From positions 25,778,225 to 25,842,224 of the forward strand of contig CM120640.1 of assembly GCA_051362555.1 (NCBI GenBank): a stretch of 64,000 nucleotides of DNA. Reading direction: 5' to 3'. The notes beneath the pieces are model-generated. The model was given only the letters and a program-made list of their open reading frames with translations, was not told the DNA's origin and did no database searches. Each line of letters starts with the position of its first letter. The first letter of the stretch is position 1. The position numbers and the translations under genes are program-made. This DNA comes from Lingula anatina. Its lineage: Eukaryota; Animalia; Brachiopoda. Positions 286 through 30,415 of the stretch are shown piece by piece.

Positions 286-1456
286 ATGAAAAAAGTATTA
301 GTAAGGATGACAAAGTTATATGCCATATCTGATCTCCATGTGGATTACCATGACAACTGGGATATTATTGGAAAGTGGCATAAAGAAAAGTACGGGTCGC
401 ACTGCTTGTTATTGGCAGGCGACGTGTCGGACAATATAAACTTGTTGGAGAAGACTCTTCGGTTACTGAAAGAGAATTTCTTCAGAGTATTCTTTGTCCC
501 AGGTAAATGGGCAATGAAGCCTAGTCTCTCTCTCTCTCTCTCTCCTATCAGATTATATATCAGATATATACTGTCTGCAAACAGACAGTAGGCCTACATA
601 TCAGAATCGTCAATTGGAGTGCTAACGCATGAACTTTCGTGCTATCTCTCTCCCTACCCTGCGTTAATTCAATTCTTTATTTAATGTCGTTGGTAAATGC
701 CCTCACATTTTTTGTACTCCTATGTATGGTCTTGATTATTCTTCAGGCAATCATGACCTGTGGATTCGCAAACGAAGCAGCACCTCGGATTCCATTGATA
801 AATTCCATCAGATTTTAGACTTGTGTAGAACTGTCGGTGTTCTAACATACCCAGAGAAGATAGCGGATCAGTTCTGGGTTGTACCGCTTTTCTCGTGGTA
901 TACGACACCAGAAGAAAACGTCGAAGACTCCCTCTATGTAAGACCCACGCAATTTGTGGAAAATGCTGAAAAATCGAATCAAATCTGGATGGACAATCAC
1001 CTGTGTAAGTGGCCGAAGTTAGACCTCAAATCAAGATCTGAATATTTTACAAACATTAACAAGGAGAGAGTTGATAGGACTTACGATGCGCCAGTTATAT
1101 CTTTTAGTCACTTCTTACCACGAAAAGATCTTATTAAACCCGATGCAAGTGAAGAATGGTTATGTCAACAGGAACGGCTGTCCCTAGGATTGTCACCAAT
1201 TATCCCACCCGCTGAAGGGGGTGCCGTTGGGTTTAATTTCACACGATACGCCGGATGCACTACTCTGGAGTCACAGATTCGTAAGCTTGGTTCTGTATTG
1301 CATGTTCATGGACATCAGCACAGGAACCGCGACAGGGTCATTGACGGGGTGCGGTATGTTTCTCACTGCTTGGGTTATACCAGGGAACGCGAGCAAGGCC
1401 TTATGTGGGGATTACAAGAATGGGAAGCGGGCCCAAAGCAAGTGTGGCCACTGTAG
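286..1456 (+). CDS. Calcineurin-like metallophosphoesterase (resembles PptH-like phosphodiesterases); 2 exons: 286(or 307)-502, 747-1456
   Basis: Motifs ISDLHVD, LAGDV, VPG|NHDLW (joined across GT-AG intron 503-746), FSHFLP and HGHQH; the two ORFs splice in frame. Confidence 0.85.
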
Positions 1457-8961: not shown

Positions 8962-11900
8962 ATGACGCTAAATATTAAGGAGCAGCTGAGGAACTTTACA
9001 GTAAAGGATTGCTTCGCTAAATGCCGACAGTCACGAACCCTTGTACTGGTTGTGGTGTTTATAGCCATATTTCTTGACAACATGCTGCTGACAACAGTAG
9101 GTGAGTATCAAGTTTGAGCCAGTTTTCTTTCATTTTCATTTTCCCCTCATTCAATCTCACACCTTTATATTTTGATATTAATAGGCATTACATTTTGTTG
9201 CGATTTACCGTGATGATACTTATAATAATCCCAGAAAATTCGTGCATGAACATTTGACCTTATACCAGGTAGTTTACCAAAAAAGCGTTTCTTTGGCAAG
9301 AGAGTTTCATCTGTCACTTTTAGCATTATTAGTTTTACCTACCGCCCTCGGTATTGTATTTGCCCTCGAAGTCAAGACAAATGGTTTAATTCAAATACAT
9401 AACATTTGTAATCAATAATAGAAAAGGTCTATAACACCTCTAAAAACCAATTTTGTCCGTCTCCAAAATGTTAATCCATCAATCCAAACTATTATTGGCC
9501 TCACCATTGACATGTTAAGTGGAATGCCCGTTCAGATGCTGTTCTATTCATTTAATTTCATTGAGATAGTTTCTTTGAGTTTGCCATGCACTGTTCTTGG
9601 AAATACATGATGGGAATTTGATACCAGGCCATCTATGAAAACGAGGTATTGCGTGCAATTTGAAGGCACGTTTACAATGTGGGAAGTCCTGTATACTTAA
9701 ACGCGGCACGGAAAAAATTCTAGTGGATTCCTTTAAGGTTCTGAAATATAATAAATCTTATAATAATCGTACACCTGTCATATTTTGTCATTACCAATCC
9801 GCTCACACAGAACCGAAAGTTCAGCGAAATCCTTAAAATTTTTATAGATGTCCTTTATCAGAGGAACGACTTCCAAAAAAAGGGGGATATCTACACCCAA
9901 AATGTCTCTGACACCCCTGCAGGGTGTGAAGCTATTGGATTTTACGCAAATTTTAAAAATAATTCTCCAAACTAAAAACATCGCTATCCTTTCCAGAGAA
10001 ACTAGATATCCTATATCTCGTCTCACTGGTTGGAATTTCTTCTAGCAACTAGTCAATACAATATGGTTTTGCGTATTAAAATCAGCGCTGGAATAATAAC
10101 ATCCATTAGGGTTCATTCTGGGATTGTATGCCGTAGCAATAAAGACTGCAATTACATTCTTTGCTTATTGATTAATTGTGTTTGTGCAAGCAGTGAAGCT
10201 AAAATGTCAGATATCATCTTTTAAGGCAAAGTCTCAAAGACTCAAGGATAGGCGGCTAGATTAGGTATTTTGAGCAAAATTACCATTTAGATCAAACGCT
10301 AAGAGGAATTTTTATCCCAATCTTTAGTTCACCATAACACAGTCCACTAGTGTGAGGGATAACCTCAGTTTGCCAAGCATAATTTAGATCAATCCTATGC
10401 CTTACTGGAAATAACAAACGGTTAATATTCCTTTACATACGAAGCACTCCGTAAACTTCTTTTTTGTGTGTGTAAGACAGGCAATATTATTTTGGTTGAA
10501 TTTAAATTCTACTGCATATACACAAATAGATAGATAGGCCCTATTCCTGCCATATGACTAAGAATTCTTTTTTATTTTTCATTTCTTTCAGTGCCTATTA
10601 TTCCAAATTTCCTGTACCATTTGGATCATCCAGATTTAGTCGCAGCATCAAGGAACCTTTCTTCTATTAGGCACTCATTGAACATTAGCAGACAAGGCAA
10701 TGAGACCTATCAAAATGTCACGGTCCTTTATAAGAAACAGTGCACAGACCATAACGCAACCACGAGGTCTAATTTTACTTGGGATGACGTAGTGAAGCAT
10801 TATATTCCAAAGGCCAATCTACCAGATGAGTGCTACGAAATAAGATATTTAATGACTGTTTTGGCGGAAAATGCAACCAGTGTGGAGGACAATATCGACG
10901 TTGAGGCGGTCATGAATGCTACAGAGGAAGTGGCAAAAAAGCGACATTTGTATCTTGTAAACGAAAGTGTCAAAGTAGGATTACTGTTTGCTTCTAAGGC
11001 AGTTGTACAACTACTTACGAACCCATTCATTGGGCCTTTAACCAACAGGTGAGTTTCCGTTGACGTTATTACATATATGAATCCAGAATACTTATTTAAC
11101 ATATTGTTAATAAAACAATAAACACGTGAAGATCTACGTTTGGTAAATGCACCTGACACATAAGTTTGATGAAGGACCTTTTGTCATCATCTTCAGTTTT
11201 ACATGCACGTACATGCAGATGAAGTGAGTAGTAACACCCAAAATTCAAATGCGCTCTTGTGCACTCGGCGTGAAACTATATTGAAATCAAGTGGATAAAA
11301 ATCTTACCGGACTTTTTGATATTTAATAATTTTACATTTAAACATAGGCAACATACTACGTTGTGATATTTCTTCTCGTGCACATAAGTTTTAACTTAAA
11401 GCTGAAGTGATATATATCCCTAAGGCGTTCAGTTCAAAATTCACAGTCCAAAAACTCAATGTTTGCACTATATGGAGTGATTTGGGGATTTTACCTGTGG
11501 TGCGAGTAGGACTTTCTTAGAAGAGCTGATCAATCGATCAGCTTGTATACACTTGCGTGTACTGCTCTCAGTTTCTCTTCTGTCATGAAACATGTCTTTA
11601 TATCAGCAAATATCTTCTTAAACATCTGAAATAAGATTATTTTATTAAAGGAGCTCTCGGATAGGCAGACCCCAATTTTGTGACATTGGATTTTAAACAG
11701 AGTAATTGCAAGTCCAGACAAAATTTATTATGATTCAAACACAATATGTATTGTTGGCTCATCCTGACTGGAAGTGTAATTAATTTAACATAGGCACTGG
11801 CAGTCAGAAAGAATGCTATAATCTAAGAAACTAAAAACTTTGTAGAATCAAGTGCAATTTCGTTGAATTATGGGAGGCAATTTTCGAGAAATTAACATTT

Positions 11901-14900
11901 CTATTTACATAAAGTTAACTTTCAGTTTATGTAGATATATTTTGTGTGGATATTTTTAATCATGCAATAACTATGACGGTTAGATGATGGAATGATTTAT
12001 CTGTAACGTTAATTTGTTTTTGTATTCCTCCTACTCTTTTTACAATTTCAGGATCGGTTACAGCATACCAATGTTCACAGGATTTGTCATCATGTTTGTT
12101 TCAACAATAAGTATGTTTTCGTTCTTATTTTAACACATATTATGTAAATGTGCAACTTGAAAACACGAGTAATATTAATTTGCCATTGGAGAATAAGACG
12201 GAAAATTTATATATATTTTTTAATTCCATTTGAAGTGTTTAACTAGTAGTTTGAATTCCTGTTGTCATTTGCGTTTTGGGATCATTGTAAAGTAAAGAGT
12301 TGGATATTGTAGTTGTTTTAATTGAAGAGATAAAGTAGCTTACTATAATTAATGAAATAACATTGCAGTTTTTGCCTTCGCGGAGAGTTTTTGGCTCTTA
12401 CTGATGGCGAGGGCAGTTCAAGGCGTAGGGTCTTCCTGTTCAAGTGTGTCAGGTAAGTGTTCATTACCAAGTTCACTGGTCTTTAAAACAGTACCAAATA
12501 CTCGAGCGTAAGAAGTGTCTCTTGCATTATTACCTAACGAGCCAAGTTCAGAATCCAATCAGTTTCACTGTCTGAATTATCGATTCGATGAATAACCTAA
12601 ATGAAAAGGCTTTTCATGCACTCAACAATCGGATAGTAGATCAACAATAGTTTTGTGTGGTTTCAGCCTTGAATGTGGTTACAGTGATTCAAACTAGGTT
12701 CAGTTTATCAACATGATCAATGATGAAGCTATACACCGTTCATTATACAATGCACTAACGTGCCTGGGTCCACCACGACAGTATACATGTTGGGGTATTC
12801 TTTGTTGCAGGCATGGGTATGATAGCGGAGGTATACCCTGATGACAACGAGCGAGGACACGCCATGGGGATTGCTTTAAGTGGACTAGCTTTAGGGGTTC
12901 TTAGTGAGTTCTTAGCACAGGAAGCTCCGGGAGATTGAACAAAAACTTTATCGTTACTAAAAAGTGAAAGACAGAAGGATACAGGCTAAAGCAAAAATAT
13001 TTATCGTATTCAGTAACAATGTACACGTTTTTTATGATGAGTTTGCATGAATGCCACATTTTCGTTAAATATCCATCAAATTGGAGGACATACACTTCAA
13101 GGTTTATTGGATTTTGACTCAAAATAACACAAATATCGAATTTTTCTTACGTCATGACATTTTTTCTTGAACTTACCGACCGACACTCTTGTCCGATCGA
13201 AGTTCGCTTTAGATATGTTTTAACGTTCACTTTTCACTAGGCTAATTATAAGATAACGCTTACATGTATATTTGTACTTCTCACAAAAATACAATTTTTA
13301 TCGGGATAATAATATCTTTATTAAAAGGTATCTAACATTTTAGATAACTGCATAAACACGAGAAATTATGAAAAAAAGTATTTTAGGTTAAAATCCTACG
13401 GCCTTGTTTTGAGGTAGCAACATTTACAGAAACATAGTAAAATGTGGTATTTATCAAATTTTAGTTGGTCCTCCGTTCGGTGGTGTGATGTACCAATTTG
13501 CAGGCAAGGAAGCGCCTTTCCTTATATTAGCGGCATTGGCTTTATTTGATGGATGTAAGTTAACGCACACCATTAAGACTACAGTAAGAATTCAGATTAA
13601 CACGATAAAAACTGGATACAATTATCATTTACTATACTTTAATTTTTTTCTGAGTATGTACTCACTGTATTCCCATTTTAAGCGACCGTACACATTAACC
13701 CCATACCCATATTAATTCTAAATATTAACATATTAAAGAATATTTGTGCATGTTGCACGTTTAATTGTATATTTTGCCTTTCAGTATTACAGCTTATCGT
13801 CCTAAAACCCCGAGTAACTCCGGAGTGTCAAGAAGGAGCTTCCCTGAAAAATCTCTTGACAGATCCTTACATTCTTCTTGCCGCAGGTAGAATTTACTTC
13901 AACTATTATTATTATCATCATTATTGTTGTATAATTATTCTCATTTTATATATATAAACATTACCGTGTCAAATGATATCACTCTTGACAAAGTGCGTCC
14001 TCGTTACGTTCATACCGATATCTATAATTTAATCTTACTTCTGAGTCCGTTTTGCACTGTTTTAGGGGCCATTACCTTTGCTAACATGGGCATTGCCATG
14101 CTAGAGCCTTCACTTCCAATATGGATGCTGGATACAATGAATGCACCGGAATGGCAGCAAGGTGATTACTTTCTTGCTGAATGTTGTTCAGTACCCAGTG
14201 TCCCAGATGTCGAGATTGAAAATCTACTGTCGAAATAATATCTAGCGCATCAAAACAAAATACGTGTCTTAATAATTGATATTGATATGATACCCGTAAG
14301 TGCAAATGGAGATACCCGTATTTGCAAATGGCGTTATATCTATTGCAGGCACAGCTTTCCTCCCAGCCAGCATATCATACATGATAGGAACAAATACGTT
14401 TGGACCGCTAGCTAACAAGATCGGAAGGTGAAGTTTTCAATACATATTGTCTATAATTGTCCCAGTATCAAATCGTTTATTTTGTCAAACTGTCTCTCAG
14501 GAGCATGCATTCAGACCTCAATATATATTTATTTTTTAACGGATCGTTTTTCTTCTTCAGATGGCTTAGTTCGTTGATTGGTATGATTATTATCGGCTGT
14601 TGCCTCGTAGCGGTAGGTTATCTTGGTGGTTTGTATGACCAGTTATACGTAAACAGAAATCTAAAAAGATGGGTTACTCATAAAAGATATCCGAATAATT
14701 TTAAAAAAACTATAGTTTTCTTCACAAAAGCAGGCAAGTTGTTCTTTGAACAATAAGTTTTTACAATTTTAATTGTTTATCAACATATAGTGCTGTAATC
14801 TATCAAGATTTTGCACCCTCCCAAATTTTAAGAATAGTTTCTTTAATTCCTTCATTAATGTCTCCTTCATTAATACGATTAAAGTAACGTATTATTTCGG

Positions 14901-16255
14901 TGTGCCGTGTTGTTCAGTTCGTGACACATTTTGTGTTGTCAAGCTAACACACTTTGTGAACAGCATCGTGATGCACCCTCCACAGTGATACATTACTTAT
15001 CTTACACGAAAAAAAAATTTATGTCACTTCCCTTGTCACGCTTATTATAACGATTCAATTGCACTCTACCAATGAACGTTGTGAACGTCAGTGATGTCAT
15101 TGTGTCATTGCAGATCCCTTTTTCCAAGAATATATTTCACCTCATTGCGCCAAATTTTGGGCTTGGGTTTGCTATCGGTAAGTGACTGTAGGCATGCTTG
15201 ATGCACTGTTTATATATCAATGTATCCGTGTTCCTTATTGTTTGTAGACTCTGTTGTAGGAAATTGTATGTTGTTGCCTTGTTGTTAACCTTCAAGAGCA
15301 CTGTCAGAATCACTATTCTTAATTTAAAATCAGTTGATCAAGCTAATACATTTCAGGCAAAAAGTTTTGGTCCACACTTATCTCAATAACGGAATGGTCA
15401 AGTGCTGACCTAAAGCACAATTTGACAGTCGCTGCTGAAGTAGTCTACAGTACTAAACTTCTTATCGCCCTTTCTCGGTGCTCTCATTGCCTTATTTACC
15501 TGACAAAGCGGTGAATTCAAAATCCAGGCAAATTTTGCAGATTCCATTTTGCCGTAATCCGAATGTACTTGTTCCTTCGATGGCAGGTTTAGGCTTCTCT
15601 ATCGGTAAGTATCGCGTTCTCTAGTTTCATAGATTTCAGCTCCTTTTATCAGTTATTCTTTTCTTCTTTCTTTGGTCTTTCTAAGTGAAACCGTTAGCTT
15701 CTTTTTTGTTTAATGGCATTTCAATTAAACTGGTTGTTTTATCAATACCTTCATGTTACATTATCAATGCATGCATTCATGTTACATAAACGCAGTTATT
15801 GCAGTTATTAGTTTGTATGCCAAAATATAAGTCGAAAGGGTATGCTATGGTATGTATACCTCTTTTATTGTAACTAAAATGTGTTTTTCAAATAAATCTA
15901 CCAACGACCTGTCAACTCAGTCTTAAATTCTGTAAAAAAAACGTTGATCGACATTACTAATACAATCTTTGTCATAGGAAAATTGGACTCCTTGTTAAAT
16001 GTATTGAAAAATGTATCGCACACATTTGCGGTCAGGAATAAAACCTCTAGCTAGGATCAAAGGCATGAAAATCATTTTTTATTCCAGGAATGGTGGATTC
16101 TGCTATGATGCCTCACATGGGTTATTTGGTGGACCTGCGCCATACGTCGGTTTACGGCAGCGTGTATGCCATAGCAGACGTGGCATTTTGTCTGGGGTTT
16201 GCTGTTGGTACGTACAGAACTTTACGAAAAAATGGGTAAAATATTGATTCATCGT

Positions 16256-16302
<47 letters not shown>

Positions 16303-17432
16303 AAGGGAACTGTCAATTGTTATTGCTCTCGTGTTGAAATTCATTCCACACAAAACTATTGTAGATCGTAGATCGATCCAACTCCGCGAGGACTCTCGCT
16401 AAATGCAATTCAGCTTAGCAGATTAACACGCCTTCTTTTATTTCCAACGTACTCGTATGATCACAAGCTTTTCTGTATTCTATTCAACGCCAGGAGGAGG
16501 CGTGTTAATCTGATTGCATTCAGCGAGAGTCCCCACTGAGTTGGATAGATCTACGTGGAACGACAGTTCCATTTGGAAATGAACCTTTAGTCTCTGTTTG
16601 ATAATTGTATTTATTTTATAGGGCCGTCTTTGAGTGGAACGATAGTGAAAGCAGTTGGATTTTCATGGCAAGTTTCACTTTTTTTCACATTTCTTTTGAA
16701 ACCAGCAACGTAAAATTGACTTTTTTCAGGCAAAATTCTGAGGCACGCCTTTTGATGGCAAGATGTTATCAAATTAAGTTTATAAGGCAATTTATAGATT
16801 GGGAGACGCAAGGTGGTCGTATTTATTCATCCACTAATTAGTTTTTAATTCTAAACGGCACGAACGGCAGAATACATTCCACGTACTAGTGAATATGATG
16901 AACAGGTTTGTTATCTTTGTAGGATGCTTTGGGGGATGGCCATAACTGTATTCCTGTTCGCGCCGCTGATGTATTTCCTGCGCAACCCACCCGCTGTCAA
17001 AGAGGAGAAGATGGTAGGAACCATTATCATCGCTTGTGAGAATGCACAGGACCATGCACGTACACACTAGATACCAGGCTTATCAAACTGCATACACTAA
17101 GTGCACATCCTAAACATACACTTGTGCTCTACATTATACATGCATTATACATGCAGTTCTTAATATTATACTAAGTGTATATTTTGTGAATATCATTTAA
17201 AGTACTCTTTTCAATTCAAGTAATGCATTGCAAATTGAAATTGCATGTGTCGACATCACGATACTTTAAAAACCAGTTAGAACTATTTTTAAAGAAGTGA
17301 ATTTCATTTTTCCAGGCACTTATCATGAACGACAAATGCCCGGTCCAGTATGTGACCTACGCCCAAAACCAAAAGAGTGCGGATAATTCGGATGATGAGC
17401 CAGAAACCATGGAATCCTACAACGATTATTAA
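8962..17432 (+). CDS. VMAT: Vesicular monoamine transporter (VMAT, SLC18A1/2 family), proximal isoform(s). Exons 8962-9100, 10592-11048, 12052-12110, 12369-12452, 12811-12903, 13465-13554, 13785-13886, 14066-14161, 14349-14427, 14561-14612, [15114-15177 or 15541-15604], 16088-16207, 16622-16667, 16923-17013, 17316-17432
   Basis: [66 protein letters not shown]; exon phases are consistent throughout; AATAAA at 17789. Confidence 0.95.
15114..15177 (+). CDS. VMAT: VMAT alternative exon 11A ([22 protein letters not shown]), canonical-type
   Basis: cag acceptor, GTAAGT donor, 64 nt; closely matches the vertebrate VMAT2 segment [22 protein letters not shown]. Confidence 0.9.
15541..15604 (+). CDS. 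VMAT: VMAT alternative exon 11B ([22 protein letters not shown])
   Basis: ttttgcag acceptor, GTAAGT donor, 64 nt, same phase as and homologous to 11A. Confidence 0.85.
16259..16298. repeat. (TA)n microsatellite
   Basis: Perfect run. Confidence 0.95.
16340..16583. mobile_element. Long-inverted-repeat MITE-like element in a VMAT intron
   Basis: Arms 16368-~16424 and ~16498-16554 are near reverse complements; motifs resemble the TAA-MITE family. Confidence 0.7.
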
Positions 17433-18258
17433 CATCTGGCATAGCTTAATTTAAGGGCGATCCAATACCTTAAACTAGATATATTTATTGAAGCGTACCG
17501 CCCGTTATCAGACAATTGCATGGGCGAATTTGGTCGTATTTTAATGAATTATTAGTATGGACTGTAAGAATGTAGATGGGAGTAACATCACTTGTATTTG
17601 TAGATAAGTATTTCATTTTCCGGTAGGATGGGCAGTATCTATGGAGAGGGTAACTAGGATTCAGTGTTCAGATACTTTTGCATCAAAGTAATTATGTGGT
17701 GAAGGAATTTACTGACCAATCGCACAAATGTTTAATGTTCAAGTATAGATGCCTTTTCTTTGCTTCCAGCTATCCTGTCTATGAAAGGAATAAACAAATT
17801 GCAAATTTTATCATGTTTTATCAATTAAAAAATTGAAAAAAAAATCCACTTAAAATTGAGGCAAGTCAAGAAAAAAAATTAATTGAACAGTTTTGTTCAT
17901 CTGGTACATGATATTGACAAAAGATTTCCGGCAGATTAAAGATTAACGGCAAATATGTTTAAAATATGATCGAGCACAATGTCATCTTCAGCAAGAAGGT
18001 AAGCACGAACATGATTTATTATCACAACAAATTGAACAATGTTAGATAGTAAACTAACAAAACAAACACCATATAGAAACGACTCCACTAACAACCAACC
18101 AAAATTATACTTGTAAGTATTCTTGATGCTAAAAAAATCATTGTATTTGGATGTTGCTTTGCATGTTTAGGCTGCTTGGACTGTGTTAGCACATTGTGCG
18201 GGAATTCATTACTTTAAAAGTGGATAAGCGTTCAGCTTATGAGCATGTTTTCTTTCAG

Positions 18259-21200
18259 ATTCCTATTTGCGCAACTCCTGCTGCACTGATACCGCCAATG
18301 GCTGGACTTGGCTTTTCAATTGGTGAGTATGTACTTTCCAGCTTTCCAGCTTCTGCTATGCTGGTCAATTTTAATAAAAATGATATTGCAATCATATTAA
18401 CGTGCCGTCTGTTTGATGTTTAAAAACTTTTTAAAACTTCACCAAAGAAGCTACACGAGAAAATGTTGAGGGAAAGGATACGAATTATTGGCGCATAATA
18501 TTCCATGAAACAGAGTTCGATTTTTCCCTTAATGTTTAACTGAAATTCACCTTATTCATTTATTCAAAACAATGTTTACAAACTCATTTTCCAGATTTTT
18601 ATTTACCTGAGCGTGATCTCAATTTTTAATTGAAATTTAAATGTTTAAAATGAGACATAAGTCGTGTAATTAATGACAGTTACGAATCTCGCTATAATTT
18701 TAAAAAAGCTAGTTCTCTTAGTTGAGTACATAAAAACGTGCCAATATATTTTCTCTCTTATCTCAGGTATGGTGGATTCGTCCATGATGCCACACATGGG
18801 ATATTTGGTTGACACTCGCCATACCTCTGTGTACGGCAGTGTGTATGCTATCGCCGACGTGGCATTTTGTGTTGGATACGCTTTTGGTACTTTATTCATT
18901 TTTATTTTTTATCTATTATTATTATTATTATTAATTTGCAACGAGTTAAGGTAACATTTCATTCAACAAGTACTCTTATTATGAGTTTTTCTGGCATACT
19001 GAACTAAATGCTCTTCCTCGTTTGTGCGTTTCAGGGCCCTCGATGTGTGGAACAATAGTAAAACTGATGGGTTTCCCTTGGTAAGCACACTATTAAAGAA
19101 TTTATCTTATTATCATCATCATCATCATCATCATTTAGAGCCTATAGTGTTCCACTGTTGGACAAAGGCCTCAGCATGCTTTTTCCATTGTTTCCTATCC
19201 TGAGCCTCAGATTTCCAGTTTGGCCAAGGTTTCTTCTTCCAAGACTTCCAGTAGTCATCTAATTCATCCCTCCATCGTTTGACCGGCCTTCCTCTTTTTC
19301 TTTGTCCATACCTTGGGGTCCATTCTGTAAGCCTGATTGTCCACCTATTGTCCTTCATTCTTTTGACATGTCCTGCCCACCTCCATTTCGTTTCTTTAAC
19401 TGTGAGCAGTACGTCCTTAACTTTGGTCTGTTCACGTAACCATACATTCGTTTTCCGCTCTCTTGGATTGATGTTTAACATAATTCTTTCCATCTTTCTC
19501 TGAGCTACTTGTAGCTTGTGTTCCATGGAGGCATTCAGTGCCCAGGTCTCTGAACCATAGGTGATTGCCGGCAGCACACAAGCATTGAACACTTTCTTTT
19601 TCAGGCAGGTAGGAAGGTTGCTCTTGAAGATGTCATTGTGTTTCCCATATGCTGCCCATCCTGCTTTTATCCTTCGTTGGATTTCTTTCTCCAGTGTTCG
19701 ATCACTAAGGCTGAACCGTTGCCCAAGGTATATATACTCTTCTACTGCTTCTATCTCTTTGGTGTTGACCTTCACTGTGCAAGGGGTGGTTAGTGGTCCA
19801 AACATCACCTTTGTCTTGCTGGTGTTCATCTTTAGCCCACTTTTTGCGCTTTCATCTGCTAACGCCTGTAGCATTTCTTCGAGGTCTTTTGCATCATCTG
19901 CTACTATTATGATGTCGTCTGCAAACCTAAGGTGATTGAGCCTGGTACCGTCTATGTTTATGCCCTTGTCCTGCCAGTCTAGATCCCTGAATATACGTTC
20001 CAATGCTGCTGTGAACAGTTTAGGAGAGATTGTATCTCCTTGGCGTACACCTTTCTTGATCCTGATCTTATTGGTGGTCTTGTGTAGTTTGACTGTTACA
20101 GAGCTATCGGTGTATATGTCTCTGAGGACGTCTACGTATCCATCTTCGATCCCTAGATCTTGCAGGGATGCCAGTATATACTGGGTTTCTACTGAGTCGA
20201 AGGCTTTTTCATAATCAACGAATGCTACACATAGTGGAATGTTATACTCGAGACATTTCTCTTTGAGCTGGTTGACAGTGTGCATATGATCAGTAGTGGT
20301 GTACTGGCCTCTGAAACCTGCTTGTTCCTTTGGCTGCGCTTCATCTAGTTGTCTTGTTAGCCTTTCGGTCAATATCTTGGTGTAAATCTTGTACAAATTA
20401 GAAAGTAGGCAGATGGGTGTGTAATTCTTGATGTCTTTCCTATTGCCCTTTTTGAACATTATGATCATGTTGGCGTTCTTCCATGCTACAGGAATTTCCT
20501 TCAGATGTAAGCACTTTGTGAAGAGCCTGGCTAATTCCTGAGATAGGATATCTCCTCCTGCTTTTACCATTTCTGCTTTGATGTTGTCATTACCTGCAGC
20601 CTTTCCGTTCTTCATTTTCTGGACTGCTGACTCTACTTCCCAAGCTGTTATGTCTGGTAGATCGCATGCCTTTGTTGAGATTTCTATTCCCTTGTTGCTG
20701 TCATACAACTCTCCATAGAATTCTTCTACTCGTTCTAATATCTGGTCTTGTGTGGTGAGCTCATTTTCATCTTTGTCTAGAAGAGTCAGCATTCTATCCT
20801 GCCCTAGTTGAAAGGATCTCTTTGCTCTTTTCATGCTCTTTCCATTTTCGATGGTCTCTGCTATCTTCTTCATGTTCTGCTTCCTGATGTCTTCCCTTGC
20901 CTTCTTCTTGATGGTCTTATCCAGTTCTGCATATTCGATGTTGTTTCTGATGTCCCTGTTGTTGTTTACCTCCGTTTTCTTCATCATCCGTCTTTTCTTC
21001 ATGAGAATCCTCGTTTCTGTTGAGAGCTGTGAGTCCTTCATTTTACTGGCCGGTGCGACTTCTGATGCACATTCTAGGATGGTGGTCGTTATTCTATCGT
21101 TCATTTCATCTACTCCATCTTCGCCTTCTAGCTATAGTGCACTGAATCTGTTCGTTAGGAGGATTTGGAACTCGTCTTTCTTTATGACCAGTATTTATCT

Positions 21201-21970
21201 TATAGGAAAGTTTCCCATTTATCTTATAGGCAACGTAAAACAAAAATCCTCTCTTAGGCAACGTTGCTCAGGATCAGTGCACCTCGGATAATACTCATGC
21301 AATTGTCAGAGTGTTCTATGATACACTTTAAAAGCCTTGACAGTTTTTCTTCATATGGTGCAGTTTTTGAGTAAAAATTTGCCAATTCCACGAATACTAC
21401 CGTTTCTTTCAAGGATGCTGTGGGGTATGGCTATAGTAGTGTTCCTCTACTCTCCCCTGGTGTGCTTCTTACGCCAGGCGCAAGTGCGCGAGGAGACGCT
21501 GGTATGTACTGTATATTTTACTGTATATTAAAATGTTTTAGAAAGAATATTGCCACCATGAGATATTTATTTGTCAATTTGCCACAAGCATTTCCATGAT
21601 GAAGGGGATACAAGGAGTAGAAAACTTTCCATGTAAAACATACATCAAGATATTCTCAGGTGTCCGCGGAACACCTGTCAGCATTGCCTTATTATGGTAT
21701 TGACTTGGTGAAATTTAGTTTATTTTTATTGCTTAAAAGCAATACTCTTCAATGTAATAGGCAAGCATTATTGGGATAATGCACTCTCTTAAACAGCGCT
21801 TCTTGGTATCTGCGTAAATATACATGTATGTTAATTGATTTATTAGAAAGGAATTTTGAATCCTTTTCCAGGCGCTGATCATGAAAGATAAGTGTCCGAT
21901 TCAGTACGTTACCCAGGCTCAAAATTACTCTACGCTGGACGAAGCTGTATCCCCGGATGAACGCCCTTGA
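18259..21970 (+). CDS. VMAT: VMAT duplicated alternative 3' block: exons 11C 18259-18322, 12' 18767-18886, 13' 19035-19080, 14' 21414-21501, 15' 21872-21970
   Basis: Same phases as proximal exons 11-15 and identical sizes for the first three (64/120/46 nt); intact splice sites, open frame to TGA 21968-21970, AATAAA at 22062; no copies of exons 1-10 in between. Confidence 0.85.
19111..21192 (-). mobile_element. 5'-truncated RTE-clade LINE (RT domain), antisense inside the VMAT intron between exons 13' and 14'
   Basis: 657-aa ORF with [21 protein letters not shown] and LRFADD; (TGA)n tail beginning at the stop codon; ATTTATCTTAT direct repeat at 19100-19110 and 21193-21203 (TSD); no endonuclease N-terminus. 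Confidence 0.95.
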
Positions 21971-23874
21971 AATTCAGCTAAATTTGGAGGCAGTGTCCTG
22001 TGTAGAATTGCAGCATTGGAAACAACCATATTGAAGACACCGAGATTCAAGAAACTTTTAGAATAAAAAAAATGTACTGTTATGTCATATACCGTAGCAA
22101 TTCCAATAGTTACAACCAATCTGAAATAGCTCTATCTTGTGGTAATCGGGCTTTGTTAAACACTTCAATATTGAGTAATTTATAATTCTTATTTGAGTCC
22201 ATTGTAGCCGTCACAATTTAATTTTGTGGTTGAAAGAGTGGATGTCCATGCGATGTACTACAGGTAGATGCATGTCAATGTAAATGTAGGCCATTTCCTA
22301 CGTGTTGCAACGGAATAAAAATATTAATTATATAAGTATTGTGTTCAGTTCGAGTCTATGTTGTGTGAATAAACAGAATCACAATTCCGATCACAGGAGC
22401 ATCGGGAACATAGCTATCAAATGTGAGCAATGCAGTTTTTAAACGCAGCTTTAACTACTAGTAGTCGGTCAGCTATTAAATTAAAGCCGTTTTTAATTTG
22501 AATATAAGCACTTGCAAGTAAATTGACTAACAAGTAAAGTTATCTTGCACATTAGCGGGTATAGCGCCTGAACATATTGCTGCTTTTCAGAAAAATCGTT
22601 TCCCTATTTCCTGGTTGTTTTGTTTAGAGGGTGGCCTAACGCGAGAAAATCACTGGTTTGTCAGCCACTTTGCAATTTAAAAATTTTTTAATCAACCCCG
22701 TGAACCAGATAAAAGGAAAAACAAATTCACAATTTTCAATAACCGAACGGTCTCTGTATAAATCTTAAGATAATATTATATGTACCCAAAATTTTTGACC
22801 TGTTAAATCTGTTCGTTTTTAATATTGCATATTTTATTTATTTATTGGCTAAATAAACCTTATCTCTTGTCTGTTTATCTCTTATCTCTTAAAGAGATAG
22901 TGTGACACTGATACATGAATTTTGTCGATATTAAGACAGTAGGCCCAAATCGATATCCACTTCAATCTCAAAGAGTTTTTGAACAGTTTTGGGAGGGCCC
23001 TGTTCACAACCTCGAATGCAGTTCAGGCGTTAAATAGTCAAATTTCCCGAGGTTTAACTCAGCTTTCAAGCATCCCTTCCACACCCTTCTAAGAAAAAGA
23101 TGCGTCCAGTAAAACCCGCTCGTCCGTTTGGCAATTATTCATTGGCCGAACTTTATACCCATTGTACCTGGTAAATAGACTCCCTTTTTCACTATTTGAG
23201 GCTTTATGTCTAATTGGATTTGTGTCGTTGATTAAATGATTATATGATTAAAGTTAAAAAAAAAAAAAAAGAAATTAAATGTGTGATGACAGCTACCAGC
23301 CTAACCACAACTGCCTGTCCCGTTTTATGGTAAGATGCATTAGATGTGATCATAGAAGTGCGATTGCAAAATACCTACCTTTTTTCCCAAAAGAGTTCTA
23401 AGGTTGCAAAATGGAGGCGTCCATGGAAACCCGAATTTAGCAGGTGTTTGTAACGTCATTAGTGCATCAAGTAAGTTATATATTGTGTTTTTGAATCAGT
23501 CAAGTGCATCAGTCATTATTTCCATTATGATTTTTATGAATTTTTAGAATTTTGGAATAAACTGAACATCAAAGACGTTAAACGACAGCTATTTGTTGTC
23601 ACAGCGACTGAGCAATGAGGTGAAGGCATTTTTTATTTTACTGTCGTGCTGTGCGTACCTAATAGAATGCCAGTTATTAGACTTTGTACATAATTTCACC
23701 TTACTTACGTACGGTAAACGCATTGTCATATAATAAATGACTGGGTATGTTTTGAATTTGAAGGAAGTCATTTGCACACATACCTTATATGATTACCAAG
23801 TTATGCTAGTACTGACACTGAGTGAGATACACATTTATAACCCAATCTGTTTTGCATTGAATATTCAGCTAAGT

Positions 23875-26800
23875 ATGGAGGCAGAGCGTGAGGATCGAAT
23901 GGCCAACATCTTTGCCAAATTGGATGGCATGAAAGCAGACAGAGTGGAGCAGAATAAATTTGAATCTTCGTCAGAACAGAAACCTCCAAAAACGTATGAA
24001 GAATATGTGAAGTTGTATGGTCTGGTAAGGAAAATATACAAAAATATATTATTAATGTTGTGTACAGCAGGGTGTGCAATGTGTTGTTAGCAGTTTATTG
24101 GTCACACTGTTTACAGGCTTTCTGGTAAACTGTGTTTGATACATTGTATGGTGTAACACACTTTTGTTACTCATGTCTTAAATTTTGCCACTTGTGGTTA
24201 CAGAAAGAATGGCCAGAACGTCTGACCTCAGAAGGACCTCTACACTTGCAAGAAGAGGGTGGATTCCTTGGTGGACAGGAAGATATATACAACTTGCTGA
24301 AGGAGGAAGCACGTATCCTTGATAAAATCTGTATAAGTGGTCAGACAGATACATGTACCAAGCAAAACCTTTTCTATCTAAAGGCACACGATATACCCAG
24401 TATGTGTAAATGTTAACTGATAATACTCACTTCTTCCTGTATGAGACATTATACAAATTATGAGGGGTTGAAAGGGCAATTAAAGTGGCATATTTTGTCC
24501 CATATACATGTACATAATTCTGGTACTGTGTATATACTGCAGTATATATCCAAATGTTCTTCTGCAAAATACATAATTGTTTTATATTTTTATTACACGA
24601 TTAGCTTTTGTTTAATATATATATACCCCTTTTAGTTTAAGTTTTGTACTGTTTATTATACCACTTTAACTCTGATCACTTAGCCATTGACATGACTTTG
24701 TTGGATGACCTTGAAGACAGATTACTGGATTTGGAAAGAAAACTGAGACACTATGCAGATCAAATTATCACTGAAGAAACACGGTCATCCAGAAGAGCAG
24801 AAAACTTGTTTTATGCACCACCAAAAAGTAATGCTGCAATCATCAATATTTTTCCTTTGTTCTTATTGATTATTTTGTTAGCTAAGAGCTTAACGAAAAT
24901 AAATATTAAAAGTTATAACATTGATTAAGATGTTAAGAAAACAGGTTTAAATGTCTAGAATATTAAATACAGGCAGTAGTTCCTAAAATTATTTATAAAA
25001 TTATGATAAATAGTTAAGATCAGCTATTAAGATTGAAACCATTTACTTGGCAATGAGTACTTCAGGCATGCTTTAATAAATGGATTTCTTTTCAGCTTTC
25101 TTGACACAAATGGCAGAATCAGATGCTGTCAAAATACATCATAGCAGCAAAGCCAAAAAGTCAAAGGTAGTAATGTTGTCCACTATTATCAGATTTGAAT
25201 ATACAATTTTTTTAATATCATCAAAATGATACTGATTACTCATTGGAATTAAAATAATTATCACATCAGCCAAATCTGAAGATATTTCTTTGAACCATTT
25301 GTACAACATTCCCTCTCATTCTAATTATTTCAGAAACTTTTAGCAATGAAATTTGCCACATGGAAACCAGGGGTATATAGATAAATTGCATTATGATATA
25401 ATATTCTGCTTTATTATGATAATGCATGAAATATATTTTGGACGGCTGGGGCATGGTGTTTGCATGGATACTAGATTTATGCTTGCAAGCATTACTTCTG
25501 TAGTCTTGACATTCCCTTTGTAAGGATTTTTTTAAATAAGAATATGGACAGTTGAACTTTATATACGAGTATGTTTGGCACACCTTCTGTCTTTTCTTTT
25601 TTATTTAACTAGTATTTATGCTAGCATTTGTCACTTGTATTTTCGGACCTACATACACATGTAAATATAAATTAAAAGAAACTGCATGGATTTAATGAAA
25701 ATTTTACTCTTAATCTTATAGATTAGTCTTCCTTCCAACCTGCTGATCTGACATTTCTTAGTTTATGTGTAATAGCTGGAACTTTCCATTTTTGCTTTCA
25801 TTGTCAGGAAAATTCTTAACATGGTCTAAAGTATATTCTAAAAGCACATTCTTTTATTCTGGTAACTCATCCATTAATTATTCATTTTCCTTTTCTAAAT
25901 GCACATTTATGTAGAAATATGTCTTATAAAATGGTGTGGTAATGTGAGTCAATGAACACTGGCTTATGTCAATTGATATAATCATGTGAATGAATGAATG
26001 CAGTTTGATGCATGTCAATGGCTATGTGAAAAATGTCACTTTGGTGGAAACTAATAATGTTGGCCAAATTGCCAATTTATTTTGATGTAAAACTAATGAT
26101 TGCTTAGCTTGGATGCATTATTTGTTCTGAAAATGATGGTGTCCATTTCTGTAGGATCTGGCAGAGGTGATGCTGGAGACGAGGAAAAAAGGAGTAGAGT
26201 TTTGTACATTCCCTGGCTTCAGGAAGGGAGAGTTGACTGAGCTGCCAGCACAGCTAGAGACTCCACAAATTCTGCATAGAGTGACCAAGGCACAGGACTT
26301 TAATGTAAGCAAGTCAAAAATGACCTTTCAATAAATACAAAGAGAAAAGAGAATGGTCTTGTATGACAGATAAAGATAAACCTTTACAAAATATTTTTGA
26401 TTCATTTGAATGCTACATGTTTATGTTATATGATTGAGGTTATCAAAAACATAAAATTATATTTATTATATATGTAACCAATTTCTTTGCAATTTTAGCG
26501 TGGCTTCAAAAAGATGTGGAAGAAAGTTTTCTTATCAGAAGCATCAGTGGCATTGATGCAGGACACATTCTGGTGGTTTTTTATAAACAAGTATGAGGTA
26601 AGAGACTTGTATTTCATACTGTTTTTATCAGATAATGTTATGTGCCATTTGTGCATCTTTTTGGCTGAATTTTTTCAATTTTGACATGTCACTGTTATAG
26701 AAAGATTTTTTTCTTTTTGCATTTATTTCCATTACACAATTTAGAAATCCAAGCACAGCAGTGAGCAAGACCAACTGTTTGACAGAATTGCAGACAGCTT

Positions 26801-29607
26801 TGTTGCCCTGTTTTCAAGTATCCATCCTGATGTTAAGGACAAGTTTTTCCAGGTAAGCAACTACAAAAACCAGCAGTTATTGTAAGCTATGTAGCCACAT
26901 TTCCTTCACTTACATCTTTAGACTGAAGTGAAGTTATGATTGATAGTCATTATGGAACTGTTTTTTTTTCAGGCTCAGTTTAACCTTTTATGTGCACATG
27001 TATGATATGCTGCTTTAACTTTCTTCTTCAGGTGTATCCTGAGGCTCTTGCTCAAGCCATCTATTCTGCCTTCTTGGAGGCTTTCCCAGAGTCTAAAGTT
27101 CAATTCCATGATGGTTTCAAACAAGAACTGCTCAATACAACATATGAATGGATGACTGGTGAGGTCCCAGTCTTGTAACTATATGCAGTAGATCTTTTAG
27201 GCAATATCATGCAAAAAGTCTCAGTTGCTTGCTAATTATGTTTGACTGCTTTGCTGATAATTTAATAGTATAATCTAAATTTCATTATACTGCCATTATC
27301 ATGATAAAAAAATCTTTTGAATATTTACGTTCTATATCTTTGAACATCCAATATTTTACTGCATTTACTTTACAATAATTATGGAATTTTACATATTATT
27401 AAGTTGTCAAACATTACTGTCAAATAATATTGTTTGACCTTGCCAGGTGTTAAGCCAGTTCCTGGAACTCACAAGCAATGGAATCTAAGAAGATTGGAAC
27501 CAAAGGCCAAAGCTACGGATGATAATGCAAGGATGCTGAAGGCAGATCAAGAGAAAAATGGTACAAAATAATTAACTGCATTCAATATATAGTGCACATG
27601 TTAATCATGGAAACCCACGGATGTATTCTGAAATACAGTATGTAAAATAGTAAAAGTTTCCATCTGACCATTTGATGTATGAAAATAGAAATATTTAATC
27701 TGTGGCACATATCATTAATGCTGTAAAGAAAGAAACTTCCATCTTAACTGTAACCTTTATTTCATTGCCAGCAAAAGCCAAATCAGACATGGAAAACTTT
27801 GAGAAATATGTGATGAGCTTTGGCAATGAGCCGAGAGACCAGGATGCTTCCAGAGAAAGCACATCTAACAAAACTAGAGACCTGGTATCCAGGGAGATCA
27901 CCAAGGCAACAAGGGAAACAACAGGCTCCCTGCCAACACATACCCAGAATATGCTGACTCAATCAAGAGTGGCCACCTGTGGAACACCAAGGAGAAAGCC
28001 TGTGGAAGTAAGAATATATACCTTTACTGTTTTATAATCACGAAGTACCATGTTTTTTAATCTTCTCATAGATACATAGTTTACAATCATTTCCAGTAAA
28101 AGAAAAATGGATAAAGATCATTTCTAAGAGAATTAACTTTTTCCATAATTTAATATACTGAATAGCACATAATGTATGTAGTTTTTAAAACAAACTCCTT
28201 CATGAAATTTACATTTACAATATATTATACATTATATATACTAAAGTCCCTTTTCACATCGAGTTGAACAGTTTGCCATTTTGAGAAATTGACAACTCAA
28301 TAGTCTGGCTATTACAAAAGAGGGTAACGTGCACAGGACCTCTGCACTCAACACAGCAAGTTATAACCAGATTATTTGGCATGGTTTATTGGGGCTTTTG
28401 AAAGGGAGTAAAAAACATAGCTGGATTACTTATTGGGACCAGCCATACAGCTTGATGTGAAAAGAGCATTATTTTCATAAAAAGATGTTGGTTTGATATC
28501 AGACAATGTAATGGCTTTAAATTTTTATTTCAGTCTCATCAAATTGGACCAGGACCAGAATTTGAACGTGTCAAGTTTAACTTAACTGGCCAGAGTCCCC
28601 TGATAGCACACTACATGCACATGAGACAGTTACAAGACCTGGAACAACCAGGCAGGAGGATACGGAGGACAGAAATAGCACATCTGCCATATCCTTTCAT
28701 ATATTAATTTGTTAAAACCAGATATATTCTAAATATATTCTAAAATACCATCAGAGAAGATGCTACACCCAATTTTTCCATTTACCTACGTGCATTACTT
28801 AAAAAAGGAAATAATTGATACATATTTTTTCTTAACTGAGTCCACTTTGCCGGCACCAACCTATAAGCAGGTCATCAACAAATCCTTGGCATTTTCTCAG
28901 GCAATACAGAGGGAGTATCAAAGGTAAGACTGCCAATCTACTGCTTGTAATAGATGTTTTATACATCACCTCTTAATTTCAATCATTTACAGTAAGTTAT
29001 TTTCCCCCATTTATCTGAATTGAATACATAAAACATTTTTGACTCTGTAGACAAAAAAAAATAAAAAATGATAGTCGTAATGTAAAAAAAATATATATAT
29101 ATTTTAGCAAAATGGTGCAAATTACATGGATCTACAGTTTTTTTTTTTTTTAATCACTTTTTTTAGAATAACAGAGCAGACTAACCAAGAAATATTAAAA
29201 CTTGAACTGAAGCGTTTAGAAACAAACCGTGAGATATCTAAAATGAAGGACCAAGTATCAGCAGCCAGAAACAGCATGGAATTGAAAATGTTGCGGGAAA
29301 AACTGTGGGAAAAGAAAATGGTAAAGAAGACAATTTTGTTAAAATCTACAAAGATTTCATAGTCCTCATATTTATTAAAGTCATCCATCTTTGACATGAT
29401 GTACAATTTATGATATATCAGTGAAAACTTTCATATGGTTTATATCCAATGAAACAAAATCACAAAGACTAGACATTAGACTAGACATTCTGTTCTGTTT
29501 ATTCATTTCAGGAGAGACAAACCCACACACCTCTTCCATTGGGCATGGAGAATCCATTTTCTGGAGGAGATGATGAGGATGAAGATGATACAGATGGTGC
29601 TATGTAG
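23875..29607 (+). CDS. FAM227B: FAM227B-like (FWWh domain) protein. Exons 23875-24024, 24204-24312, 24684-24827, 25096-25166, 26155-26304, 26499-26597, 26745-26852, 27032-27158, 27447-27560, 27772-28007, 28534-28688, 28846-28923, 29167-29320, 29512-29607
   Basis: QDTFWWFF, LFDRIADSFV, YPEALAQAIY, FN..GQSPLI..Y and PTY motifs; the frame is continuous when two U12 introns are used. Confidence 0.85.
24313..24683 (+). other. U12-type GT-AG intron
   Basis: 5' site GTATCCTTG; CTTTAAC branch (24664-24670) 13 nt before the end of the intron; splice keeps frame (KEEAP-IDM). Confidence 0.75.
28245..28470. mobile_element. MITE-like element with terminal inverted repeats
   Basis: CCTTTTCACATCGAGTTG at left versus CAGCTTGATGTGAAAAGAG at right. 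Confidence 0.6.
28689..28845 (+). other. U12-type AT-AC intron
   Basis: 5' site ATATCCTTT; branch TTTCTTAAC ending 28836; ends CCAC; splice gives in-frame HLP-LPAPTY. Confidence 0.9.
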
Positions 29608-30415
29608 GGCAACATGCTAACAAATAAAACTTTCATATGATCAGTTTAAAAATTGGGCAAAAAGTTTTCACTGACATACAAAATTTATGTAAAGAACATT
29701 TTAGTAAATTCTCTAATAATTTTCAGCAGCATGACAAATTAGGTACATGTATTACATGCAAATCTGAAACAATGGCATGGCATCATTGGATTGTACTTGT
29801 GTTTTTCCACTTTACTTCTTAATCATTCTACATTTTAAAAAACAAAGTATTTTCCTTTTATTCTTTTATTAATGAAACAAAAAGCAGGTCAGTTTAGGTT
29901 ATCTGATATTTGTAAATACTCATGATGACATGTATATCATATTTTTAAATGATTAAAATCACACAATTCATGTAAATGTCTTAAAAGATAATAAACCTCT
30001 GAATAGTAACATTATTGACTTGTTACTGTATATAAATAGGTTTTGGAATGTTAGCTTCTCTAATTGAAAACGTACTGAACAAGCTCAGTCAAGTTATCCA
30101 CCATTATCACTAATTATTAATAAAAGCTTAGGAATTTTCATTATTTTAATTATTATACATGTATATCAAAATATATCTTCTTTAACTTTATAAATGACAT
30201 TTTTATTGATAGTGATAGCTCAGTCTGAGCAGAACTTCTGCAGTTCATATTTTAATCCTTCAAGCAAATCACAATACTTTATACAAATATCAAATCAAAT
30301 GTTAAAAATATATTGCTCTGATGAACACCAACTTTAAGACCGAAATGCAGTTTGGCATTATTGGTACCGTGTGTTCTTATAGCAGATTTCACACTCAAGT
30401 AAAACCAGGCTGTGG

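Follow-up and report, generated by a model that had tools for sequence, protein, structure and literature searches.

A gene of the vesicular monoamine transporter (VMAT, SLC18A1/2) family carrying two tandem sets of homologous 3' exons was identified in the brachiopod Lingula anatina. It lies in a stretch of 64,000 nucleotides (contig CM120640.1 of assembly GCA_051362555.1, positions 25,778,225 to 25,842,224 of the forward strand), which was analysed at its full length and is called here the window. In this one gene exon 10 is likely to be joined to either of two mutually exclusive 3' cassettes, with a minor alternative exon, 11B, as a likely further partner, and the two or three resulting transporters are predicted to differ in their substrate pocket and in their sorting; a probability of about 0.7 is given to this reading. 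The anatomy of the locus, the open frames, the purifying selection and the identity of the swapped residues are established, and both cassettes are very probably used.

Gene identity and exon organization

The gene was identified as VMAT by profile, structure-sequence and residue tests. Pfam MFS_1, which describes the MFS fold, matched the proteins of forms A and C (defined below) with E values of 1e-47 and 3e-44. Thirteen VMAT entries of the PDB were matched at E 1e-156 to 1e-174 and three VAChT entries at E 1e-102 to 1e-104, and by sequence the Lingula transporter is nearer VMAT than VAChT. Exon 2 showed 97% identity to L. anatina XP_013411845.1. The protein is predicted to be a vesicular monoamine transporter, which would load transmitters of the serotonin and dopamine type into vesicles.

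Exons 1-10 are present once in the window, exon 11 three times (11A, 11B and 11C) and exons 12-15 twice (Table 1). The three copies of exon 11 are each 64 nt long, exons 12 and 12' are both of 120 nt, 13 and 13' both of 46 nt, and 14 and 14' of 91 and 88 nt, while the phases following successive exons (1, 1, 2 and 0) are alike in both blocks. Three open products can be assembled, namely form A (10>11A>15, 562 amino acids), form B (10>11B>15, 562 amino acids) and form C (10>11C>15', 555 amino acids). The frame is shifted if 11A and 11B are joined together or if neither is used; four representative cross-cassette joins were tested and all were open. Each stop has AATAAA behind it (17789 in the proximal block; 22062, 22314 and 22368 in the distal one), these being putative polyadenylation signals. 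The locus thus has homologous multi-exon cassettes in tandem, with equal entry phase and a stop of their own, and within the first cassette 11A and 11B are adjacent homologous exons of equal length (64 nt) and phase (0/1), with 10 of 21 residues identical. A tblastn search with three full VMAT proteins revealed no second copy of exons 1-10 in the 64-kb window.

The rebuilt map agrees with the initial annotation, made from the sequence alone, in which exons 11-15 were said to recur with the same phases, an open frame and their own stop and AATAAA, exons 1-10 not being duplicated between the blocks. Its description of the splice sites as intact holds for most of them, which are standard, but not for the GC donor of exon 13 (ATG/gcaagt, 16668-16669) or the AAG acceptor of exon 14' (21411-21413), both of which fit the RefSeq proteins. 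These two weak sites could permit cross-cassette joins, in frame.

Divergence between the two cassettes

Exons 12 and 12' differ by 13 synonymous and five amino-acid codon changes in 41 codons, reproducing the hand count of the initial annotation (about 13 and 5). Over the whole block (135 aligned codons) nonsynonymous divergence (dN) was 0.21 and synonymous divergence (dS) 2.38, a ratio of 0.088 (Fisher p 1e-21); under a neutral-copy model the probability of so few nonsynonymous changes was 3e-18. The paired introns and untranslated regions could not be aligned in six pairs out of six, the best blastn hit being a 12-nt word on the reverse strand at E 0.026, which bears out the dissimilarity of the introns claimed earlier. 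The duplication is old and under purifying selection, its synonymous sites being near-saturated; this had been proposed before, and the dN/dS ratio now puts a number to it. Since synonymous saturation goes together with a dN of 0.21, the block is neither a haplotype duplicate nor a pseudogene that died long ago. An assembly artefact or haplotig, considered as the source of the distal block, was likewise ruled out by the synonymous saturation.

Annotated isoforms and transcript evidence

The Lingula VMAT protein cluster has four members. RefSeq X1 (562 amino acids, XP_013411843/4) is the 11A form of the window and X2 (555 amino acids, XP_013411845) the 11C form; in the automated annotation exon 10 is already connected to each of the cassettes (10>11A and 10>11C). 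RefSeq variants are usually backed by RNA-seq introns. Both X1 and X2 differ from the window forms at the same four positions, all in the luminal loop of exon 2, and the RefSeq gene therefore comes from another haplotype or assembly with the same layout. Of the three proteins proposed by the initial annotation, two have their joins in X1 and X2, while the 10>11B join is found in none of the four Lingula records.

RNA reads were drawn from four of nine same-species runs (6-25% of each) over the region 13300-18888. In all four runs the depth was zero on exons 6-10, 11A, 11B, 11C, 12 and 12'. Two runs gave no more than 1.2x on the proximal exons 14-15 and the untranslated region, and nearly all reads fell on a multi-copy repeat at about 16340-16580.

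Stand-alone fragments of the VMAT 3' end were also seen in the protein records, both in Lingula (XP_013389833.1, P0125) and in Lineus (XP_064630010/1, P0128), the latter one residue from the main gene; such fragments may be haplotigs or recent partial duplicates.

Residues of the substrate pocket

Residues were numbered by alignment to human VMAT2 (PDB 8ucj) with an offset of 43; Lingula residues 355, 431 and 476 correspond to E312, N388 and Y433 of the human protein. The AlphaFold model of form C had a mean predicted local distance difference test score (pLDDT) of 60, low in 449-489, with helices through residue 529. Based on the modelled helices (400-420, 424-454, 458-490 and 492-529), transmembrane helix 9 (TM9) was placed at about 400-420 and TM10-12 at 424-529, in agreement with the earlier proposal that TM1-9 are common to all forms while TM10-12 and the tail are swapped. 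Exon 11A encodes the luminal loop between TM9 and TM10 and the luminal half of TM10. The equivalents of N305, E312, Y341, D399, D426 and F429 are identical in forms A and C, the first three being encoded by the shared exons 1-10. The D33 motif is present in the alignment to human VMAT2, and D460 is replaced by V in both forms.

Two pocket positions are exchanged. At residue 431 (N388) 11A encodes N, and both 11B and 11C encode M; residue 476 (Y433) is F in the proximal block, as in human VMAT1 (PDB 8tgg), and Y in the distal block, as in human VMAT2 (PDB 8ucj). In structural work on VMAT2, N388 points at E312 (PMC10959523), and Y433 forms hydrogen bonds with E312 and with the amine of histamine, which VMAT2 binds 30-140-fold better than VMAT1 (PMC12721464).

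For a census of these positions 320 redundant records were fetched, of which 274 were usable, 46 being left out as fragments or misaligned. The combination of residues at 388 and 433 was N and F in 235 records, N and Y in 22, M and F in 14, M and Y in one (the distal Lingula form) and another in two, the N388 equivalent being retained in 258 of the 274. The use of F or Y at position 433 as a general mark of VMAT1 or VMAT2 identity was rejected, as the records of VMAT2 shown for fish, frog and reptile have F and the position toggles at the level of genera (F in 32 and Y in 5 of 37 lophotrochozoan genera).

In the proposed mechanism E355 (E312 in human), common to all forms, would be given different hydrogen-bond partners in each form. 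Form A would offer N388 and F433, the pair found in human VMAT1 and in most invertebrates, and form B would offer M and F, as in clams. Form C would present M and Y433, the combination seen in 1 of 274 records, in which Y433 may favour histamine.

C-terminal tails and sorting signals

The proximal tail contains the motifs EExxxLI and YVTY and an acidic serine patch. In the distal tail EExxxLI is kept, YVTY has become YVTQ, YSTL has been gained and the acidic patch is mostly lost. In a census of 37 lophotrochozoan genera, represented by one hand-chosen named record each, YV[TS]Y was found in all 37, and in Lingula in the proximal tail only. The best six-residue stretch of the distal tail contains two acidic residues; that of the proximal tail has at least four, as it does in 35 of the 37 genera. 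YSTL matches the classic YxxPhi adaptor motif.

In fly dVMAT, YxxY is reported to be the AP-2 site that directs the protein to synaptic vesicles, and DExxxLI to be a dense-core signal (PMC12772503, PMC10318446); a mammalian acidic cluster is described as holding VMAT2 on dense-core vesicles (PMC2199206). On this basis forms A and B would retain the synaptic-vesicle signal YxxY and the acidic patch, and form C, which has neither but carries YSTL, would go to another vesicle pool or cell type. A measurable difference in sorting between the forms is considered likely.

Choice of cassette and alternative readings

Cleavage at the proximal AATAAA may compete with the joining of exon 10 to the acceptor of 11C, which lies 3.6 kb downstream, and thereby decide between the cassettes. 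The exclusive use of 11A or 11B would be enforced by the product of joint inclusion, a frameshifted message with a stop at 15555, which would be subject to nonsense-mediated decay. No match to Rfam was obtained in 14400-22600.

Several observations weigh against the proposed reading and are taken here together with the explanations that compete with it. A docking and selector pairing was not detected, as none of eight intron pairs contained an ungapped duplex above shuffles (the best was reached by 11 of 100 shuffles), although in a search of one species short conserved pairings could escape. The reads of the four runs contained no splice joint; the shared exons 6-10 were equally uncovered, and the read result is therefore neither for nor against any isoform. 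As to exon 11B, only two proteins might be made, 11B being either a poison exon, which after 11A would cause a frameshift and lower VMAT through nonsense-mediated decay, or a decaying template of 11C. An in-frame 11B is found in none of the four Lingula records, and in the fourth and older of them, P0126, it stands after 11A and out of frame, the end of that protein matching the 11A>11B frameshift product exactly. The intron of 363 nt between the two exons is long enough for joint inclusion, as P0126 models it. The acceptor of 11B scored 2.1, compared with 7.8 for 11A and 7.6 for 11C, on a leave-one-out matrix built on this gene's own sites; being the weakest of the three, it also fits 11B as a minor exon. 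Neutral evolution of the 11B branch was rejected at a length of 0.6 (p 0.004) and not at 0.4 (p 0.11). Against the two-protein explanation, the N-terminal extension of P0126 lies in a frame that has a stop in the window, and this record therefore resembles a computed model. Exon 11B itself retains exactly 64 nt, both splice sites and a frame without stops after exon 10, and 15 of its 21 residues are identical to the exon of the clam Potamilus. In the exon-10 frame 11B and 11C are separated by 10 synonymous and seven amino-acid codon changes (Fisher p 2e-4), or, counted by sites, by changes at 13 of about 17 synonymous and 10 of about 46 amino-acid sites (p 2e-4). From this frame-specific conservation the use of 11B is inferred; its translation in frame seems somewhat favoured, and an output of two proteins only is rather unlikely.

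It is also possible, although not preferred, that both cassettes are used and transport amines equally, the duplication being kept only for its tails or 3' untranslated regions (sorting, localisation or stability), like Drosophila VMAT-A/B. The two cassettes do not differ at the catalytic D399, D426 and F429 equivalents, and the rate asymmetry between the copies lies mainly in the tail: with the tail included, an excess of distal changes was obtained at p<0.05 with six of nine non-independent outgroups, and on the 77 transmembrane residues alone it was significant with none of the nine. According to PMC12721464, Y433F alone leaves tetrabenazine binding unchanged and mutations of Y433 are tolerated for serotonin transport. 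With position 433 toggling between F and Y in the way described, a shift of substrate is therefore uncertain, and a difference in substrate preference among the forms is put forward tentatively, at somewhat less than even odds. What an explanation by tails leaves aside is that 11 of the 21 residues of 11B and of 11C are not those of 11A, in a stretch over which 11A and its mollusc orthologues show 95-100% identity, that the residues altered include the widely kept N388 equivalent, and that 11B shares the proximal tail, so that a need for tails only leaves 11B unexplained. Finally, the distal block might stand outside the splicing of this gene, as a partial duplicate with an internal promoter, the leftover of a second VMAT gene or an assembly artefact. 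The third member of the Lingula cluster, XP_013389833.1 (125 amino acids, identical to the distal block), is placed by itself on a different scaffold in the RefSeq assembly, and the distal exons can thus be modelled without exons 1-10; a similar near-identical 3' fragment is annotated on its own in Lineus (P0128), and the search for exons 1-10 was confined to 64 kb. The saturation of synonymous sites at a dN of 0.21, the modelling of the same arrangement as one gene on the other haplotype and the beginning of the block exactly at a phase-0 acceptor that matches exon 10 make this very unlikely. A protein of 125 amino acids with fewer than three helices cannot by itself make an MFS transporter.

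Origin of the cassettes

In a tree of exons 12-15 (112 columns, 32 rows) the two Lingula copies were sisters (99/87, starred), with end branches of 0.078 for the proximal and 0.77 for the distal copy. On this sampling, in a tree built without other brachiopods or phoronids, no other member of either group being among the named hits, exons 12-15 were duplicated inside the Lingula lineage. In exon 11, 14 of 21 residues are common to 11B and 11C, and each shares 10 of 21 with 11A. Since 11B and 11C are closer to each other than either is to 11A, the copied unit most simply began at 11B, and the 11A/11B pair would predate the duplication of the cassette. The proposed sequence of events would be a duplication of exon 11 into 11A (N-type) and 11B (M-type), a tandem copying of the unit 11B-15 into 11C-15' and a faster divergence of the distal tail.

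Exon 11A is identical to that of the chiton Liolophura at 21 of 21 residues and to that of Mytilus at 20 of 21. An M-type exon-11 region was found in seven of the 37 genera (Mya, Mercenaria, Ruditapes, Mactra, Dreissena, Potamilus and Sinanodonta), all of them heteroconch bivalves. These regions are identical to 11B or 11C at 12-15 of 21 residues and to 11A at 11-14, and are marked by Cys at position 4, loss of His 9, Met for N388 and mostly Ser for A394. Some arthropod-like records also carry M at N388, in a different context. The heteroconch clam VMATs (P0131, P0133, P0142, P0169, P0171, P0181 and P0290) share changes beyond exon 11 as well, for example in TM11, which suggests a lineage-wide shift of pocket chemistry.

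In the exon-11 tree (21 columns) 11B and 11C grouped with six clam sequences, with 96/93 under LG+G4 and 98/99 under C20 (both starred), the bootstrap of the C20 tree not having settled. Monophyly of 11A-C within Lingula was rejected by the approximately unbiased (AU) test under LG+G4 (p 0.006) and not under the C20 mixture model (p 0.13), on the same 21 columns and with the Liolophura row, which is identical to 11A, excluded. Either the M-type has several independent origins or an ancient alternative exon has been retained in some lineages and not in others, and protein lists cannot discriminate between the two, as they miss Lingula 11B. Among the members listed for 23 non-Lingula clusters (15 of 27 in the largest), none showed a further type of exon 11 or a diverged copy of the 3' block; protein lists overlook unannotated exons. 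The pair of N-type and M-type exons could conceivably be an ancestral lophotrochozoan switch acting on the proton-coupling glutamate of VMAT, of which Lingula would have kept both states and amplified the M-type into a histamine-leaning, differently sorted cassette, while heteroconch clams would have fixed M; this is regarded as improbable. On the same improbable assumption other molluscs would have fixed the N-type or would hide an unannotated M-type exon. Such a switch would be more than 500 million years old. Convergence is more likely, because 30 of the 37 genera have no M-type record.

Transposable elements and neighbouring genes

A 5'-truncated non-LTR (lacking long terminal repeats) retroelement, or LINE (long interspersed nuclear element), of 2.1 kb lies antisense in the intron between exons 13' and 14'. 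It was not mentioned in the initial annotation. It contains an uninterrupted stop-to-stop reverse transcriptase frame of 666 codons (19131-21131), a short-repeat 3' tail and, at 19100 and 21193, 11-nt repeats that are candidates for a target-site duplication. The element is presumably RTE-like. It is probably a recent insertion and is a passenger outside the switch.

In the intron between exons 12 and 13 an element resembling a miniature inverted-repeat transposable element was noted (16344-16578), with inverted arms of 66 nt that are 77% complementary. Hundreds of divergent RNA reads pile on this element and continue into unrelated sequence in all four runs, and it is therefore a multi-copy repeat. 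Three neighbouring genes are included in Table 1, of which the first has a weak phosphoesterase match; the gene at about 23860-29550 resembles FAM227 by motif only, and the GHMP kinase gene is taken to be galactokinase-2-like.

Table 1. Features of the L. anatina VMAT locus and its surroundings (positions are those of the window)
Feature	Position	Strand	Remarks
Shared coding exons 1-10, overall	8962..14612	+	residues 1-417, TM1-9; GT-AG sites, open frame; single copy in window
Exons 1-5	8962-9100, 10592-11048, 12052-12110, 12369-12452, 12811-12903	+	
Exons 6-10	13465-13554, 13785-13886, 14066-14161, 14349-14427, 14561-14612	+	
Exon 11A, N-type	15114..15177	+	RefSeq X1 XP_013411843/4; keeps N388 equivalent
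Exon 11B, M-type, unannotated alternative exon 11	15541..15604	+	64 nt, phase 0/1, AG/GT
Proximal exons 12-15	16088-16207, 16622-16667, 16923-17013, 17316-17432 (TAA)	+	RefSeq X1; GC donor after exon 13
Proximal AATAAA	17789..17794	+	candidate signal
Exon 11C, M-type, opens distal cassette	18259..18322	+	RefSeq X2 XP_013411845, joined to exon 10
Distal exons 12'-15'	18767-18886, 19035-19080, 21414-21501, 21872-21970 (TGA)	+	amino acids as RefSeq X2; AAG acceptor before 14'
Distal AATAAA candidates (22062, 22314, 22368)	22062..22373	+	
5'-truncated non-LTR retroelement (LINE), 2.1 kb, intron 13'-14'	19111..21192	-	antisense; reverse transcriptase domain, Pfam RVT_1 E 2e-32
Two-exon gene upstream of VMAT	307-1456	+	weak match to calcineurin-like phosphoesterases (Pfam Metallophos, E 9e-4), short of the curated cut-off
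Next downstream gene	~23860-29550	+	one 32-amino-acid exon without Pfam match
Multi-exon GHMP kinase gene	~30400-33300	-	Pfam GHMP_kinases_C E 9e-6

Comparison with known systems

Genes with multi-exon 3' cassettes in tandem form a class already described, with Drosophila PGRP-LC, CG42235 and Pip as examples (Pan et al. 2018, PMC6191721), and the layout as such is more familiar than the initial annotation suggested; its occurrence in SLC18 and the residues swapped look new. As in those genes, Lingula VMAT has duplicated multi-exon 3' cassettes with their own ends, which in flies are spliced singly to a common upstream exon in a manner coupled to alternative polyadenylation. In CG42235 the cassettes number five to seven, with six to eight exons each, and the duplication dates to about 20 million years (PMC6191721), whereas the Lingula gene has only two cassettes, with an extra alternative exon nested in the first, and by synonymous saturation its duplication is far older. 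The Lingula gene also differs in having no detected docking and selector pairing, although PMC6191721 describes pairing-free genes of this layout too, and in that its cassettes swap part of the substrate pocket of a 12-helix transporter.

With Drosophila dVMAT-A and dVMAT-B the gene would share the alternative 3' processing of one invertebrate VMAT gene and tail variants of tyrosine and dileucine type (PMC2570955, PMC10318446). There dVMAT-B, reported as glial and as required for histamine storage (same sources), arises from a retained segment, and the change is confined to the very end of the C-terminus (PMC2570955), whereas in Lingula duplicated exons replace residues 418 onward, including TM10-12. 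The F/Y alternative at 433 is the same as that between vertebrate VMAT1 and VMAT2 (SLC18A1/A2). Those are, however, separate genes, both human proteins retain N388, and the other pocket differences (L37, V232 and I308) lie in the half that is common to the Lingula forms. The heteroconch clam VMATs resemble 11B and 11C in the M-type exon 11 and its 12-15 identical residues of 21, but in the protein records seen the M-type is constitutive in them, with further changes elsewhere, and no second exon-11 type occurs among the records listed. Neither a cassette of this kind in VMAT or SLC18 nor a description of Lingula VMAT splicing was found in the literature, where coverage was thin for subscription papers and for supplements that may hold genome-wide lists. 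The interest of the locus resides in the exchange of sorting signals and of pocket residues in a transporter of neurotransmitters.

Most invertebrates, to our knowledge, rely on a single VMAT gene to handle serotonin, dopamine, octopamine and histamine, and the tuning of that gene to cells and vesicle pools is known mainly through the tail variants of the fly. The Lingula locus is a natural experiment in which 417 N-terminal residues are held constant while three C-terminal variants change the sorting motifs as well as the two hydrogen-bond partners of the residue equivalent to E312. With this locus the roles of N388 and Y433 in substrate choice and proton coupling become testable, and it bears on whether the altered TM10 of clams and Lingula reflects descent or convergence, and on whether splicing can stand in for the duplication that gave vertebrates VMAT1 and VMAT2.

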